Shown here: positions 42,285 to 47,888 of the stretch, piece after piece
Layout of the letters: each line of letters begins with the position of its first letter
Numbering within the stretch: position 1 is the stretch's first letter
DNA from: Gemmatimonas sp.
Lineage (GTDB): Bacteria > Gemmatimonadota > Gemmatimonadetes > Gemmatimonadales > Gemmatimonadaceae
Direction of reading: 5' to 3'
DNA length: 64,000 bases
NCBI GenBank assembly: GCA_031414535.1
Contig: JANNVQ010000030.1
Location: forward strand, 144,936-208,935
Position numbers and translations under genes: made by a program
The notes under the pieces: generated by a model
The model's input: only the letters and a program-made list of their open reading frames with translations
Told to the model about the DNA's origin: nothing
Database searches by the model: none

Positions 42285-45200
42285 ATGGCGCGCAAACAGG
42301 TGAAGCCGGATCGAGTCCGTGTGCGAGTGCTCGGGGCCACCGAGCTCCAGATTGGCTCGCGCCGCGTGGGAATGAATACGGAGGCGCTATTTGCGCTTGC
42401 GCTGTACCTGACGACGCGCGCCGGGGAGCGAATCGCGCGGGAGCAGGTGTTGGAGATTTTCTGGACCGACGGTGCGGAGGAGAGCCGCCGCCATGCGATG
42501 CGGCAGATGATGTATCGACTGCGGCAGAAGGGTTTGGAGCTTGATGAGGATGGCGAGTTTCTCCGGTTGGACCCGGCTCATATTGAGAGCGATTTGCGGG
42601 ATTGCCTGCAGGCGGATTGGCCGGAGCGAGCGGGTGCTGCTGCGGTGGAGGCAGCCCTAGCTTTGGGTCCCACGTTTAGCGCTCGCCTTGCAGCACCGTT
42701 TTTGGATTGGTTTGATGGGGTGCGGGCGGAGGTGGCGGCGCAGCATCGGAAGGCGGCTGCCAAGCAGATCACGCTTGCCCGGCGCGAGGGGCGCTGGTCG
42801 GAGTTGGAGCGCTGGGCGCGTTCCGTCCTGCAATCAGACCCGCTGAATGAGGAGGCGACGTTAGCGCGGGCTGAGAGCGCAGCGATGTCGGGGTCGAAGG
42901 TCGCGGCGTTGGAGATACTGGATACTTATTTGGCGGAGATTGGGCAGGTGGCGCCGGAGTTGGGGAAGCCGGCGGTGGTGCTGCGGAAGCGGATTGCGGA
43001 GAAGAGGGCGGATTGGACTCAACGAGGGCCACGCGAAGTCCGGTTGATTGGGCGGTCCGACCTTATGCGGAAGCTGAATGCGTTCGCGGACTCCGTAACG
43101 GCCGGAGACTCTAAACACTTAGTCCTCGAGGGTCCACCCGGTAGCGGAAAGTCGCGGTTGCTCGCAGAGGCCGGTGAATATTCCCAGCTCAGAGGACTAA
43201 GAGTGCTGGGTGTTCGAGCAGAGAAAGTCATGGAGGAACATCCTCTGGCGTTTTGCAGAGAAATAGCAGCGCAGCTTGTCAGAGTACCGGGAGCTGCTGG
43301 AGTTTCCCCAGCGACAATGAAGGTGGCATCTAGCCTGGCCGAAGAAGCGGCACAATTTCGGACGGATGCAATACGCCCGACACCACAACTATCGGTATCG
43401 AGTATTGCGGGAGCATTATCCGGCCTGCTATCTGCTATTGGGTCAGAGCAGCGTTTCGTGCTGGTTTTGGACGATCTTCAATGGGCAGACGACTTATCTC
43501 TGAAGATCCTAGGCGAACTCATTCGCGCTGCCAGCCACAGCCGCGTCGGGATAGTAGCGGGCACCAGACCCCATTCAAGCGGATTGCAGCTCAACTCCGT
43601 AGCGGCGGCGTTCGACCAACTGCATCGAGTCAATCCACTCGTAGACGAGTACGCAACAGATCTTGCGAACGAGACTGCGAAGTCGCACGGCCGAGTGCTA
43701 GACGCCGCCGCGCTGGCGGCAATACTGCGCACTGCAGGAGGTAACCCTCTCTTTGTGAGAGAACTAACAATTGCTCGAAGCGCATGGCCCCATCGCACAT
43801 CGCTACCAGATTCGCTATCTCAGATTGTAGAGGATCGGATTCGAACTCTCGACGCTCGGGAGCAGCGGTTGCTGAGGATTACCGCGCTACTCGGAGACGT
43901 CGCAGCGCTTTCGAGAGTACGCGCGACAGCAGCACTCTCACACTCAGAGCTACAGCACTCGCTCGAGAGACTTGAGGCAGAGTCGATGATTCGCATGTCT
44001 GGCGAGCGCACGTTAAGCGTCCACGACTGCTGGTCTGAGGTGTTGCTCCAGCAGACCCCAGCCACGTCTCTCGCCGCCTTGGCCCTCGAGTGCGCCGAAC
44101 GGCTCATTATTGACTCCGCCGCACGATCACACGCCGTCCAGCGAAGAACCGGCCACCTACTCCGACTCGCCGGCGAGAACGATCGAGCTCTCGAATACTT
44201 CTTGGCAAGCACCGATTCTCTCCATGCAATCGGCTTGCCTCGTGAGGCGAGGGATTCGATGGCCTCGTACTCTGAGCTAGCCAACCATCCGACGGCCCAG
44301 GCACGCCTGAAGTATCGATCCGCTCGAAGTCTGTCTACCCTTGGAAATCCAGAGTCGGCGATTGCAATCGTGGAAGAGCTTCGGAGACATGGTTGGCTTC
44401 GCCAGAATGCGCTCTGGCAGGAGCACCTCGACTCCATTCTCATTCTCGCGGAAGCGTACATCAGAACCGAGAATGCGGATCATGCCCCAACAGACGAAGC
44501 ACTCACACTCGCTTTTCACCCCAACTTGGGCGCAGACGACCAACAGAAGGCATGCCTACTAGGAGTACGAATCGCGAGCAATCGAGCCGACGCGCGGCTG
44601 ATGAGGGACTTCGCTGAGCGCTCCAAGGAACTCGACGGGACTGGAGCTAGGAGCTATGCCAGCTGGATGACGGCCCTCGTTCACGCAACTGAGTGCGGAT
44701 CTGCAGCAGACATTCTCGATATTATTGACAGCGCCTCCGTAATCGACCGGAGCGACCTCACCGTGCATCAGACCTACCTAATGCACCGATTCGCTTGCCA
44801 AGCCCTCAGAGTCGCGAGGAAGTTTCACAGGTCCTTGGAACACGGCACCGCAGCGCATGACCTAGCAATCGAACACGGGCTATACCATCAGGCACGAGTC
44901 GGGGCGGAGCTGTTGGCCCACGTGTGCCTAGACTATGAAGAGATCACCGCTGCTCGCGAATGGATTTCCCGAAGCGAGCACTTGTCGACTGAGGCCGCGG
45001 TGGCAGCCACAACAAGATCTCACGACCACGTCAAGGATCGCCTAAGTGTACAGGAGGGGAAATTCGACGAGGTGTGTGGGCGAATTCTCGCACGGCTACC
45101 CTCGTCGAGAGTCGCAGGAACTCCTACGGCACGGCTAGGCGAGCTGTCACTGGCGGCGCTGTGCCTCTCACAACTTGGACGTCACGAAGAGGCGGAACTC

Positions 45201-45431
45201 GTGATTGCTGAAACGCTCGAGGCCGTCAGTCCAATCCTTGGTCAATATTCCAGTAACTTCGCAGTTGAACTCACCGCGCGTTCGCTTCGACTTATTGGCA
45301 ATGGCAAGCGAGCTGATCAGCTCTTGCGGGACCACATGCATTCGAGGATTGCGAAGAATCCCCCGACGCCGCCCCCGTTCTTCATGCAGCTCATGTCGGT
45401 GGAAAACAGCCTATCGCTGAGCGGCAACTAG
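42285..45431 (+). CDS. SARP/BTAD-domain regulator with AAA (STAND-like) ATPase and helical-repeat C-terminus
   Basis: N-terminal wHTH (VRVLG...REQVLEIFW), BTAD (DPLNEEA), Walker A GPPGSGKS, LDDLQWAD, GGNPLF. Confidence 0.85.
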   Translation: MARKQVKPDRVRVRVLGATELQIGSRRVGMNTEALFALALYLTTRAGERIAREQVLEIFWTDGAEESRRHAMRQMMYRLRQKGLELDEDGEFLRLDPAHIESDLRDCLQADWPERAGAAAVEAALALGPTFSARLAAPFLDWFDGVRAEVAAQHRKAAAKQITLARREGRWSELERWARSVLQSDPLNEEATLARAESAAMSGSKVAALEILDTYLAEIGQVAPELGKPAVVLRKRIAEKRADWTQRGPREVRLIGRSDLMRKLNAFADSVTAGDSKHLVLEGPPGSGKSRLLAEAGEYSQLRGLRVLGVRAEKVMEEHPLAFCREIAAQLVRVPGAAGVSPATMKVASSLAEEAAQFRTDAIRPTPQLSVSSIAGALSGLLSAIGSEQRFVLVLDDLQWADDLSLKILGELIRAASHSRVGIVAGTRPHSSGLQLNSVAAAFDQLHRVNPLVDEYATDLANETAKSHGRVLDAAALAAILRTAGGNPLFVRELTIARSAWPHRTSLPDSLSQIVEDRIRTLDAREQRLLRITALLGDVAALSRVRATAALSHSELQHSLERLEAESMIRMSGERTLSVHDCWSEVLLQQTPATSLAALALECAERLIIDSAARSHAVQRRTGHLLRLAGENDRALEYFLASTDSLHAIGLPREARDSMASYSELANHPTAQARLKYRSARSLSTLGNPESAIAIVEELRRHGWLRQNALWQEHLDSILILAEAYIRTENADHAPTDEALTLAFHPNLGADDQQKACLLGVRIASNRADARLMRDFAERSKELDGTGARSYASWMTALVHATECGSAADILDIIDSASVIDRSDLTVHQTYLMHRFACQALRVARKFHRSLEHGTAAHDLAIEHGLYHQARVGAELLAHVCLDYEEITAAREWISRSEHLSTEAAVAATTRSHDHVKDRLSVQEGKFDEVCGRILARLPSSRVAGTPTARLGELSLAALCLSQLGRHEEAELVIAETLEAVSPILGQYSSNFAVELTARSLRLIGNGKRADQLLRDHMHSRIAKNPPTPPPFFMQLMSVENSLSLSGN

Positions 45432-46754
45432 GTATTCACCCGTGTTGCCAATCGCGGGAAACGATTCAGCAACATCACTGGCAGGAAACTCCCGCTGGGC
45501 GTCAGCGACTGCTCGCTCCAGAGCGCTCCACCCTGAAGCCGAAATCAACTTGGAACATACCTTTGGGTCGAACTGGCGCCCGCTCTCGCGCTCTAATTCG
45601 ACTCGGACGTCGTCGAGTGAAAGCCCGGCGCGATAAGGGCGTGACGTCGTCATCGCGTCAATCGTATCAGCAAGAGCGATAATTCGCGCCGACAGCGGTA
45701 TGCTCTCACCGCTGAGCTGGTCTGGGTAGCCTGTTCCGTTCCAAGCCTCGTGATGAGCGCGGACCGAAGAGACCAAATCCGAAAAATTCGAGACCTTCGC
45801 GACTAGCTCAGCACTTCGGATTGGATGGAGCTTCATTCTTCCGAACTCCTCGTCCGAAAGACGACCCGGCTTTCGCAGAATCGACGCGAACTCCTCGTGA
45901 ATTTTGCCGACGTCGTGCAGTAACGCGGCAATCTCGACCCGCTCGACCTGACTTACCGTAAGTCCCGCCGTCCGCGCCACTTCCCGTGCATACCGCGCGA
46001 CTCGCTGTGAGTGTCCGGACGTGTAGGGGTCACGCGCCTCGATCGATGCTACCATAAGCTGCAAGAGTTCTTCGTTGATTTTCTCTAACGCAAACACCAT
46101 TCGGTACAACTGCCGGATGCCGAGCATCGGAAGCGCTGCCAGGGCGGTCCACATTGGCCCCTTCGACACGTACATCAGCGCGAGAAGCACGATGAGGGGC
46201 AAGGAGAGTGCGTCGTACACGCCGGAACCCTTAATGCTCTTCGCCCAGTGCCTCAGCGTGTTGGCGTCAGAGGACGCCGCCACAACCGTGCTTACGGCGA
46301 GCTTATTGAGTGCAAAATAGGTCGCGCAGAGCCCGACGAAAGGAAGAATTTGAGAGACTTCGAGGGTCGCAGACTTTCCACCTAGTCCGAGGTACACAAA
46401 CAATCCCACGGCGACAGCAAAAGTGTGCTGAGCCACATTGAACGCAATCTTTAGACGGGCTCTGCGGAGCATTAGTTCGCCCGCGAGTGTGCTCAAAGCG
46501 ACTGAAATTAATGCGGCTCCGTTGGGGGCAACCAACGCGACGCTTAAGTAGGGCAAGAATACAATCGAGCCTGTTGTGGCCTTGCCCACGGGATACGAGA
46601 GGACGGCGAACAACACGCCCATTCCAGTAAAGAACAGTGCCGATTGCCAGTCTGTATTGGTCGGCGATGGCGCAAGGGCAAACACGGCCGCCACGGATAT
46701 TATGCATCCGGCGGCGACACCCTCTACGACGCGCTCGACTCGGCTCGCTGACAT
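45411..46754 (-). CDS. HD-GYP cyclic dinucleotide phosphodiesterase with multi-TM sensor domain
   Basis: About 6-7 TM segments, then EARDPYTSGHSQRV, LHDVGK, HHEAWNGTGYP, RPYR. Confidence 0.92.
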   Translation of the reverse strand: MSASRVERVVEGVAAGCIISVAAVFALAPSPTNTDWQSALFFTGMGVLFAVLSYPVGKATTGSIVFLPYLSVALVAPNGAALISVALSTLAGELMLRRARLKIAFNVAQHTFAVAVGLFVYLGLGGKSATLEVSQILPFVGLCATYFALNKLAVSTVVAASSDANTLRHWAKSIKGSGVYDALSLPLIVLLALMYVSKGPMWTALAALPMLGIRQLYRMVFALEKINEELLQLMVASIEARDPYTSGHSQRVARYAREVARTAGLTVSQVERVEIAALLHDVGKIHEEFASILRKPGRLSDEEFGRMKLHPIRSAELVAKVSNFSDLVSSVRAHHEAWNGTGYPDQLSGESIPLSARIIALADTIDAMTTSRPYRAGLSLDDVRVELERESGRQFDPKVCSKLISASGWSALERAVADAQREFPASDVAESFPAIGNTGEYLVAAQR

Positions 46755-46804
46755 GTTGAGTTGTGCTCTTGGTAGAACCGGAGGACCCCTCGTCCCCAGC
46801 TGGA

Positions 46805-46876
46805 CTAGTTCCAGCTATGTGAATCGCCCATCACAAACGCCGCCATTGCAGCAATGATTGACGTGATAATAGACAT
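46805..46876 (-). CDS. 23-aa peptide MSIITSIIAAMAAFVMGDSHSWN, putative signalling peptide precursor, absent from the ORF track
   Basis: AAAGGGAGGTGAT Shine-Dalgarno 5 nt before the ATG; hydrophobic core and polar Trp-containing tail; 50 nt upstream of the HD-GYP gene on the same strand. Confidence 0.72.
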   Translation of the reverse strand: MSIITSIIAAMAAFVMGDSHSWN

Positions 46877-46881
46877 CGAGA

Positions 46882-47020
46882 ATCACCTCCCTTTCGGTGA
46901 GATCACTGAATCCGAAGATCCAGCGCCCAGCCTAGGTCGGCTCCGCTCGTCGCACCCTTACGGTGCACCGCTTGTGTCCTCTCCGCTCAGAGAGAACGAG
47001 GGGTACCTCTTCGTGTCCTG
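46882..47020 (-). ncRNA. Candidate structured 5' leader RNA
   Basis: Consecutive hairpins including CTGGATC-TTCG-GATTCAG, GCACC-GTAAG-GGTGC and a GAAA-capped stem that includes the SD. Confidence 0.45.
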
Positions 47021-47075
47021 TACGTACTGCACTTCCTAAAACAACTACACTTGCCCGTTCACCAACTCCATCACC

Positions 47076-47888
47076 TCAACGCGAACCGCGACGATCCTCC
47101 ACCACCGGCATATCGCCCGATGGCGTCATCGTCGCCATCCACCTGTTCGTCGCATCCAATACGGCCAGCACCGCCGCCGTCTCCGCACTATCGCGAATCT
47201 CGGCGCTCCCGGTGAGCATCACCTGCTCACGACCAGCCCGAGCCATCACCGCCACAAACACAAAGTCGCGCTCAAACGCCGTCATCACCTTGGCGCCCTC
47301 GAGGGAAAAGATTCCCCCGGTCGGCCCAGCAAGACTCAGCGCCATCAAGGCCGCACGCGCGCTCACGTCCACACGACTGCGGTCGCTCTGTACGGTCTCC
47401 TCAGCCTCGCCGGCGTAATGATCTGAACCAACGCGAAGCGTCACCTTGCAGGTCACACCACGCGCACGCGAGCCGCGGACTTCCACGTCCTCGAAGTACA
47501 CAGGGCGGCCTACAGCGGGAGACTTGGCAGATACTGGCTCTGGGATGGCGGCCTGCTCGCCCGTAGTGGGACGGCGCGTGGTGGCAGCCACCGAAATCTT
47601 CCGGTGGTCAACCTTCAAACCGAGCTGCGCCATAAGCGCGCTCTCAATATTTCGTACCACGGCCTTTGCCGGCGTGTCGCCAGTCACCAGGACGTGAATG
47701 GTATCTATAGATCCGTTCTCCGCCGCCGAAATCCGCGCGGACACCACATCCTTCAGCGAGCCAATCAGCTCCTCCGCGCGCTGCAACGGCAGTACGCTTC
47801 CGGCTATCGCCGAGCTGTTCTCGCTCGGATGGGGCAGCTGTGGGGACACGGAGTTCTGGGGCGGGACGGTGGGAGTCAGCCTGAACAA
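47076..47888 (-). CDS. Conserved-looking hypothetical cytoplasmic protein (two domains)
   Basis: Long ORF with normal codon usage; IHVLV...KAVVRNIESALMA..G..VDHRKISVA and AVLAVLDATNR segments; start uncertain. Confidence 0.75.
   Translation of the reverse strand: MFRLTPTVPPQNSVSPQLPHPSENSSAIAGSVLPLQRAEELIGSLKDVVSARISAAENGSIDTIHVLVTGDTPAKAVVRNIESALMAQLGLKVDHRKISVAATTRRPTTGEQAAIPEPVSAKSPAVGRPVYFEDVEVRGSRARGVTCKVTLRVGSDHYAGEAEETVQSDRSRVDVSARAALMALSLAGPTGGIFSLEGAKVMTAFERDFVFVAVMARAGREQVMLTGSAEIRDSAETAAVLAVLDATNRWMATMTPSGDMPVVEDRRGSR

Follow-up and report, generated by a model that had tools for sequence, protein, structure and literature searches.

A conserved micro-ORF unit with a covarying long-range RNA helix precedes a MASE9/HD-GYP gene in Gemmatimonadota: a proposed translational gate

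INTRODUCTION

In the phage MS2 coat-replicase system (the Min Jou interaction) and in Escherichia coli rpmI-rplT, the initiation region of the second cistron is hidden in a long-distance helix, which is opened by ribosomes that translate the first. The first cistron in these systems is a full-length protein gene, whereas in the locus described here it is a micro-ORF in a dedicated, conserved 5' leader. Type I toxin mRNAs are typified by a long-range helix between 5' and 3' regions, a masked Shine-Dalgarno (SD) sequence, and a short hydrophobic ORF. In hok and aapA, the two ends of the mRNA fold back on each other around such an ORF, whose SD is masked, and this resembles the arrangement that we describe, but the Gemmatimonadota unit is single-copy, has a fixed gene order, and is always followed by an enzyme gene. 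The c-di-GMP-I, c-di-GMP-II, and other cyclic-dinucleotide riboswitches share with our locus a structured leader before a c-di-GMP turnover gene; they differ from it in that there is no match in sequence or structure and in that the Gemmatimonadota leader contains an ORF.

Two systems with short leader ORFs come closer, as far as the accessible parts of the published accounts describe them. In Salmonella, the mgtQ uORF lies between mgtC and mgtB and frees the mgtB ribosome-binding site (PMC8092293). Like mgtQ, the micro-ORF described here is a very short ORF just 5' of a membrane-protein gene, and while acidic peptide residues matter in mgtQ (PMC8092293), an acidic residue is conserved in the Gemmatimonadota peptide. 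In contrast to what is described for mgtQ, the Gemmatimonadota helix, which is known from sequence alone, is long-range (~200 nt) and encloses the entire leader and ORF, and the ORF has its own predicted masked SD, an anti-SD element, AGCGGAG repeats, and a conserved peptide of 15 to 38 aa. The phylum and the target gene are also different. In E. coli, CsrA controls iraD via a translationally coupled leader ORF (PMC5574718). The iraD leader, as described there, likewise has repeated purine motifs, one of them at the SD of the short ORF, and the main gene SD is held in structure, with iraD translation depending on the short ORF. Our locus differs from it in that no CsrA gene was found in the Gemmatimonas genome, the micro-ORF stop is separated from the main start by 50 nt instead of overlapping it, and the repeated motif is AGCGGAG rather than the GGA loop consensus. 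Judged against these partial accounts, the class of mechanism is known (mgtQ-mgtB and CsrA-iraD), and the novelty lies in the repeats, in the target gene, and in a long-range helix that encloses a conserved micro-ORF. A literature search, with most subscription journals lying outside its reach, found no published account of such a Gemmatimonadota leader or RNA motif.

RESULTS

Organization of the locus and its occurrence in Gemmatimonadota

The window, by which we mean the whole 64,000-nucleotide stretch of Gemmatimonas sp. DNA that was analyzed, carries the unit on its minus strand between a gene for a 270-aa protein and a gene for a membrane phosphodiesterase (Table 1). The phosphodiesterase matches the Pfam families MASE9 (1.4e-8) and HD_5 (1.2e-32), and the genome has no other MASE9 gene. 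In relatives, the order of sigma-54 activator, 270-aa protein, leader with micro-ORF, and MASE9/HD-GYP protein is kept: an HD-GYP orthologue is found 3' of the leader at 43 of 45 loci, and the 270-aa gene is found 5' of it at 23 of the 24 loci that have enough flanking sequence. N-terminal protein fragments encoded 3' of the leader match MASE9 in 25 of 29 cases at E ≤ 0.01, and 17 exceed the Pfam cut-off. The MASE9/HD-GYP gene is the likely target of control by the leader.

Table 1. Coordinates of the leader, the micro-ORF, and the flanking genes, in order of the minus strand
Feature	Position or length	Strand	Description
Sigma-54 activator gene	49568-47973	minus
270-aa gene	47888-47076	minus	No Pfam or NCBIfam family match
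Gap between 270-aa gene and micro-ORF	199 nt	minus
Spacer	47010..47075	minus	From the stop of the 270-aa gene to the conserved unit; sequence not conserved
P1 5' strand	46992..47009	minus	GAGG 47009-47006; bulged U47005; core ACCCCUCG 47004-46997; lower UUCUC 46996-46992
P2 hairpin	46976..46997	minus	GUUCUCUC / UGAGCG / GAGAGGAC; includes the first of the AGCGGAG copies
Second AGCGG motif (46972-46968) and P3 hairpin	46951..46972	minus	UGCACC / GUAAG / GGUGCG
Third motif, predicted anti-SD strand	46935..46949	minus	CGAGCGGAGCCGACC
P4 hairpin	46906..46923	minus	CUGGAUC / UUCG / GAUUCAG; sequence varies, position kept
SD region	46877..46903	minus	AUCUCACC-GAAA (local arm of the earlier reading); SD GGGAGGUGA 46891-46883; UUCUCG before the start codon
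Micro-ORF	46876-46805	minus	23 codons, MSIITSIIAAMAAFVMGDSHSWN, stop TAG
P1 3' strand	46781..46797	minus	GGGGA 46797-46793; CGAGGGGU 46792-46785; CCUC 46784-46781
Pyrimidine-rich spacer and HD-GYP ATG	46752..46780	minus	Weak SD; can pair with the 5' flank
Spacer from micro-ORF to main ATG	50 nt	minus
MASE9 + HD-GYP (HD_5) membrane phosphodiesterase gene	45411..46754	minus	447 aa; ATG 46754-46752

A DNA match to the leader was found in 12 of 24 same-genus genomes. For wider comparison, we used a covariance model of the unit, R1 (137 positions, 15 pairs), which matched in 58 of 151 sampled Gemmatimonadota genomes, mostly with one copy each; this count was made under stricter filters, and weak copies may be missed. 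By family, the matches are 24/31 (f1), 29/71 (f2), 1/2 (f3), 1/1 (f5), 2/6 (f6), 0/16 (f7), and 0/13 (f10). A pattern scan of species genomes gave at least 120 loci (estimate, 550), and of those listed, 48 have the full architecture and come from Gemmatimonadota-type records, except for one labeled "uncultured bacterium." A protein search with MASE9 found only Gemmatimonadota-like proteins among the 120 matches listed. Sequence comparison shows that several Gemmatimonadota families share the unit, its micro-ORF, and the order of the surrounding genes. The idea that genomes carry several paralogous copies was rejected, since the strict pattern and R1 each give a single copy in the genome of the window and most genomes have one.

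Several observations concern the neighboring genes. The 270-aa protein is restricted to Gemmatimonadota and has two conserved domains with a variable linker between them (mean pLDDT of the predicted model, 80.7). In the model, the C-terminal (beta-beta-beta-alpha)x2 domain resembles the allosteric domain of LeuA and citramalate synthase (Foldseek E of 5e-5 to 4e-4; target TM of 0.60 to 0.64), and a fold search relates the N-terminal domain to the ring-building motifs of PrgK and EscJ. We had considered this protein as a candidate RNA binder and set the idea aside, given that the fold search led to a LeuA-type regulatory domain and ring-building motifs and that the TM value for a dsRBD was below 0.2. 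In one family (L159 to L161), the leader is separated from the 270-aa gene by an additional gene, whose 200-aa product has a helix-turn-helix-like motif at its N terminus. On the other side, a gene for a 1,048-aa AAA_16/STAND-type regulator (42285-45431, plus strand) runs toward the HD-GYP gene, and the two share 21 nt at the 3' end of the latter.

The micro-ORF is conserved and has the pattern of coding sequence

Of 50 model hits, 45 have a micro-ORF of 15 to 38 codons with an intact start, frame, and stop, as do 48 pattern loci. Its codon-position entropies (21.4/11.7/24.8 and 12.4/8.0/16.7) have the pattern of coding sequence, and synonymous changes make up 31 to 37% of the differing codons. 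It has start signals of its own and lies immediately 5' of the main gene on the same strand, which is one of the features expected of uORF-type control. In relatives, the median distance from the micro-ORF stop to the main start is 35 nt (50 nt in the window), which is long for termination-reinitiation. A 3,969-nt contig binned as Chloroflexota (L112) carries a window-like micro-ORF, MSIISSLLSALCKFVLGDAASWT; its assignment is probably a binning error rather than an occurrence in another phylum.

The peptide has no match in Pfam or NCBIfam. It usually ends in (G/A)(D/E)xxxW followed by 0 or 1 residue, with some members of family f2 lacking the Trp, and this tail suggests that the peptide may do something further, by acting at termination or by partnering the MASE9 domain. 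Taken further, the 23-aa product would itself be a working small protein, most likely a partner of MASE9 or an input to it, and the RNA fold would serve mainly co-translation, stoichiometry, or mRNA stability rather than switching. Across families, the length class, the hydrophobic helix, and the (G/A)(D/E)xxxW tail are kept while the nucleotides drift, and the micro-ORF always lies directly before the sole MASE9 gene; the paper that defined MASE9, in its accessible part, suggests that ligand binding occurs within the membrane (10.1101/2021.11.05.467447). Such a function is difficult to reconcile with members of 15 to 18 aa, which are below membrane-spanning length, or with the absence of Trp from some members, and a small-protein gene alone needs no extreme conservation of P1 and of untranslated elements. 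We consider it quite unlikely that the peptide alone accounts for the locus.

A long-range helix encloses the leader and the micro-ORF

The sequence-only reading of the window missed that ACCCCUCG is exactly complementary to CGAGGGGU, which lies just 3' of the micro-ORF stop. This helix, P1, was also recovered independently as a 9-nt perfect inverted repeat. In a comparison of 14 sequences of the window's own subfamily (MAFFT alignment and per-sequence folds), 94.6% of P1 cells are paired, and one pair is CG in 10 sequences and UA in 4, with CCCCUCG/CGAGGGG in the latter number of sequences and CCCCCCG/CGGGGGG in the former. Other families have very different lower parts of P1 (e.g., GGUCAUCG/CGAUGACC).

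We compared the predicted pairing energy of cognate strands (both strands of one sequence) with that of non-cognate strands (strands from different sequences). For 95 distinct units, cognate P1 strands reach -37.4 kcal/mol and non-cognate strands -29.5 kcal/mol, and none of 10,000 partner permutations is as good as the cognate set. For 52 units, the values are -36.0 and -29.2 kcal/mol, respectively, with -24.3 for a reversed control and -21.5 for a shuffled control. These pairing comparisons show that the 5' and 3' strands of P1 change together across relatives. Pairing of the leader with the body of the micro-ORF, a rod-like fold-back suggested by single folds, was evaluated in the same way and rejected: cognate and non-cognate values are -24.2 and -24.0 kcal/mol, 2,201 of 10,000 permutations are equally good, and the reversed control gives -25.0.

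In relatives, the paired 3' strand of P1 starts at a median of 0 nt past the micro-ORF stop. When the purine-rich 5' and pyrimidine-rich 3' flanks are included, the predicted helix ends 12 nt or less from the main start in 77 of 84 units (RNAduplex), a figure that is generous because RNAduplex tends toward over-extended helices. The flanks alone also pair slightly better with their own partners (-12.2 kcal/mol, versus -11.0 for non-cognate flanks), a difference that is reached by 15 of 10,000 permutations. In the window, the P1 core stops 27 nt 5' of the HD-GYP start, and masking of that start would therefore rest on the weaker flank pairing. Farther upstream, two segments (47053-47041 and 47080-47072) have complementarity to 46764-46752, where the HD-GYP gene starts. 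The spacer upstream of the unit probably holds both a promoter and a purine-rich 5' flank able to extend P1.

A helix at this position could in principle act on transcription rather than on translation, with P1 and its A-rich 5' and U-rich 3' flanks forming a long-range terminator that is blocked by a ribosome at the micro-ORF stop. The stop codon does abut the 3' strand of P1, and many relatives have an A-run before the G-run of P1 and a U-rich tract after it. However, known intrinsic terminators do not have strands ~200 nt apart, as P1 does, the window (CCGGUUCUACC) and approximately half of the relatives have only a poor U tract, and an RNA contig from one relative continues 30 nt beyond the 3' strand of P1. 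A scan of 46650-47250 also found no intrinsic terminator between the micro-ORF and the HD-GYP gene. Transcription attenuation of this kind is, in our judgment, highly improbable. The sole terminator-like site in the scanned region is inside the micro-ORF (46838-46853, minus strand; a 6-bp stem followed by UUUGUGAU) and is probably due to chance.

P1 and the predicted SD masking described below also resemble the corresponding parts of type I toxin mRNAs, in which case the unit would be an mRNA for a small hydrophobic peptide, silenced by its 5'-3' fold-back and masked SD and accompanied by an antisense RNA. Mobile, multicopy toxin loci are unlike the unit, which occurs as a single copy per genome, in fixed gene order, across a class. 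Moreover, the HD-GYP gene always follows, and many of the peptides are too short or too polar, so that a toxin-like function is scarcely credible here.

Only some of the local hairpins are conserved

The sequence-only reading had described a structured leader of ~200 nt (46877..47075) with six hairpins and two copies of AGGACAC. All of these are present at the places given for them on the minus strand, but only some are conserved. The second, third, and fifth hairpins, which we call P2, P3, and P4, are kept in relatives, whereas the first 65 nt are not; DNA conservation begins at ~47011, not at 47075 (matches in relatives start at query positions 70 to 74). As a single sequence, the leader folds only modestly better than chance (z = -1.78 for the minus strand and -1.19 for the plus strand).

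P4 covaries strongly: in a model-based alignment of 50 relatives, 93.6% of its cells are paired and 6 of its 7 pairs change on both sides, and a stem of 6 bp or more is folded in 82 of 86 relatives. The canonical UUCG loop to which the earlier reading drew attention is private to the window; among the predicted loops, UNCG occurs 2 times and GNRA 16 times. P2 (GTTCTCTC/GAGAGGAC) is 99 to 100% paired and nearly invariant in the 14 subfamily sequences, and in the wider family, its site forms a local hairpin of shifting register with AGCG at the loop in 43 of 90. The 5' arm of P2 overlaps the lower part of P1, which makes the two alternative pairings. P3 (GCACC/GGTGC) is 52.9% paired in the MAFFT columns of the 14 subfamily sequences, with a shifting register; a stem of 5 bp or more is nevertheless present in all 14 subfamily folds, with differing stem sequences. 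P3 is confined to the window's subfamily and one other.

The remaining elements fared less well in the same 14 sequences. The first hairpin, GAGG/CCTC, has 76.8% of its cells paired, and its variable column is explained better by the long-range pairing. The AGCC-GACCTA-GGCT hairpin has only 48% of its cells paired and is not conserved. AGGACAC occurs 4 times in the window, fewer than the 6.6 occurrences expected by chance, and its upstream copy lies in DNA that is not conserved in relatives; the repeat is not a conserved feature.

For the model structure as a whole, 94.8% of cells are paired, compared with 84.3% in shuffles (0 of 500 as good) and no more than 53.5% after sliding of the partners, in an alignment that was itself fitted to the model. 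RNAalifold applied to the raw MAFFT alignment of 52 leaders gave almost nothing (-3.4) because the hairpins are misaligned there, and a naive scan of column pairs was too noisy for use. The structural conservation and covariation in related genomes that had been proposed as a test of the leader are both found: P1 and P4 covary, and P2 is kept. Several unpaired or mismatched nucleotides are invariant, but the architecture of the part enclosed by the SD helix differs from family to family. The helices contain G-U pairs of the kind expected for a minus-strand RNA (GU in 14 of 14 sequences at one anti-SD pair). Together with the covarying, strand-specific structure, this is in line with the earlier suggestion of selection at the RNA level on the coding strand.

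An invariant upstream element is the commonest predicted partner of the Shine-Dalgarno sequence

The SD of the micro-ORF, GGGAGGUGA, lies 6 nt before the ATG and is invariant in all relatives. The GAGCGGAGCC element, which had been overlooked, lies 55 to 60 nt upstream of the SD and is invariant in 50 of 50 model hits; within the third motif (46935..46949), GAGCGGAGC is likewise invariant in the 50 hits. The SD is paired in all 86 predicted minimum-free-energy leader folds, as expected from the claim that the leader sequesters it, but the commonest predicted partner is not the local arm proposed in that claim: in leader-only folds, the SD pairs with the GAGCGGAGCC element in 57 of 86, with the local arm ATCTCACC in 16, and with other sequences in 13. 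The predicted GAGCGGAGCC-GGGAGGUGA duplex has an energy of approximately -15 kcal/mol; its blocks are CGAG with CUCG (46880-46877), GCC with GGU, and CC with GG, with purine-purine mismatches between them. Covariation is silent on this helix because both strands are invariant (0 of 6 pairs change on both sides), while one pair flanking it is CG in 6 sequences, UA in 3, and other combinations in 4. Within the subfamily of 14, the two alternatives fit about equally well: the local hairpin (ATCTCACC/GGGAGGT) is 90.7% paired, with one-sided changes only, and the anti-SD helix is 92.8% paired. The mean anti-SD energy is -11.4 kcal/mol for the micro-ORF, compared with -5.0 kcal/mol for the main gene.

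Each leader has 2 to 4 related copies of an AGCG[G/A]AG motif, which in some families is also found in the P4 loop. Family f2 (L165 to L175) has two hairpins rather than one between the anti-SD element and the SD, and the loop of its first hairpin again has an AGCGAG/AGAGAG motif, which makes loops a recurrent site of the repeat. The micro-ORF SD sequence GAGGUGAU has a further exact copy at 47070-47077 (minus strand), where it coincides with the stop codon that ends the 270-aa gene; an AUG and an 8-codon frame follow immediately.

This degree of conservation bears on the interpretation that the sequence-only reading preferred, namely, that a riboswitch or a protein-binding RNA sets access to the SD. 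The micro-ORF and P1 would then be an output stage, and the putative binding site would consist of the AGCGGAG repeats, which are invariant, together with the internal loops, rich in purines, that interrupt the SD helix. The 12 nt around the SD and 9 to 10 nt of GAGCGGAGCC are invariant across families, which is beyond what an SD alone needs, and the motif is repeated in every leader; in addition, the target gene degrades c-di-GMP, which is a common context for riboswitches. On the other hand, the part enclosed by the SD helix is one or two hairpins, unlike a fixed aptamer core. A covariance search with Rfam 15 (4,227 families, including c-di-GMP-I, c-di-GMP-II, ROSE, and ykkC) found none in 46700-47100 at E ≤ 10, and a search of five related loci found no family at E ≤ 1, in agreement with the earlier impression, gained by eye, that the leader falls outside the c-di-GMP-I consensus. 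With regard to a protein ligand, neither CsrA (PF02599) nor TRAP (PF02081) was found in this 98.4%-complete genome, while E. coli, B. subtilis, and T. maritima controls gave matches, and the 270-aa neighbor is predicted to fold like a small-molecule regulatory domain rather than like a known RNA binder. We consider a dedicated sensor of this kind unlikely, and it could coexist with the translational gate that we propose below. What stands of the earlier proposal of a cis-regulatory RNA is a conserved, covarying, strand-specific RNA beside the peptide and HD-GYP genes, although P1 and the GAGCGGAGCC element had escaped it.

Transcription signals and RNA contigs

Contigs from six metatranscriptome runs, belonging to six studies, cover 46777-47037 at 85 to 99% likeness, hairpins included. 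Two of them span 46777-47011 and 46779-46992, that is, from one P1 strand to the other, and the 5' limits of the contigs range from 46992 to 47037. These contigs are assemblies from relatives, from which transcript ends, strand, and abundance are not derivable and in which DNA carry-over is possible, and they give a weak hint that the leader is transcribed. The flanking genes are covered in these runs, at 80% likeness, only by short pieces of low identity; this is not evidence against a longer transcript, because the runs were found through sequence words of the leader itself.

A sigma-70 promoter scan of 46650-47250 found no site. The sigma-54 promoter pattern is uninformative, with 296 matches against 293 expected, and none was seen by eye at the leader. 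In several Gemmatimonas-like loci (L136, L025, L061, L063, L090, and similar ones), an inverted repeat, TCGTC-N7-9-GACGA, lies just 5' of the A-rich tract that precedes P1, about 25 to 45 nt upstream of the C-run, and it is possibly an operator or promoter element.

DISCUSSION

Based on the main gene's poor SD, the predicted reach of P1 and its flanks to near the main start, and the slightly better fit of each unit's own flanks, we lean toward the view that the ~230-nt minus-strand RNA unit (47009-46781) around the 23-codon ORF is a translational gate with two locks for the MASE9/HD-GYP gene. The first lock would be the masking of the micro-ORF SD GGGAGGUGA and its flank by the invariant upstream GAGCGGAGCC element, as predicted by folding. 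A signal would free the SD; candidate inputs are a metabolite, a protein, temperature, or the nascent peptide. The second lock would be P1, which, together with its purine- and pyrimidine-rich flanks, is predicted to span the region from the stop codon to the main start. A ribosome that loads on the freed SD would translate the 23 codons into P1 and melt it, and the opening of P1 would expose the HD-GYP initiation region, 50 nt past the stop, and admit ribosomes there. The main gene, with its weak SD, would thus depend on ribosomes translating the micro-ORF, a coupling that would operate by unmasking. P2, whose predicted pairing draws on 5' nucleotides that the lower part of P1 also needs, could for this reason hold the gate open. 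The gate model gives no established role to the strongly conserved AGCGGAG repeats.

The readings in which the locus is only a peptide gene, an attenuator, or a toxin-like mRNA are each weaker. A bolder version of the gate, which we put forward tentatively and regard as somewhat unlikely in its entirety, is that the AGCGGAG-repeat leader and the Trp-tailed peptide constitute an undescribed, phylum-wide riboregulator. Such a device would sense a signal, perhaps a c-di-GMP-related nucleotide, upon which the peptide would be translated and its ribosome would open the 200-nt-span helix and so turn on the sole MASE9 HD-GYP phosphodiesterase of the cell, with the peptide acting as a partner of MASE9 or an input to it.

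The leader represents a new structured RNA family for Rfam, with the unusual architecture of an ORF enclosed by a long-range helix, and the micro-ORF peptide is a small protein that may be a partner of MASE9, an orphan sensor domain. MASE9-HD-GYP proteins are widespread c-di-GMP phosphodiesterases, and in this genome, the sole gene for one lies behind a dedicated, deeply conserved RNA/micro-ORF device. The leader offers a concrete site at which control of c-di-GMP turnover can be tested in a phylum of soil and freshwater bacteria that has received little study.
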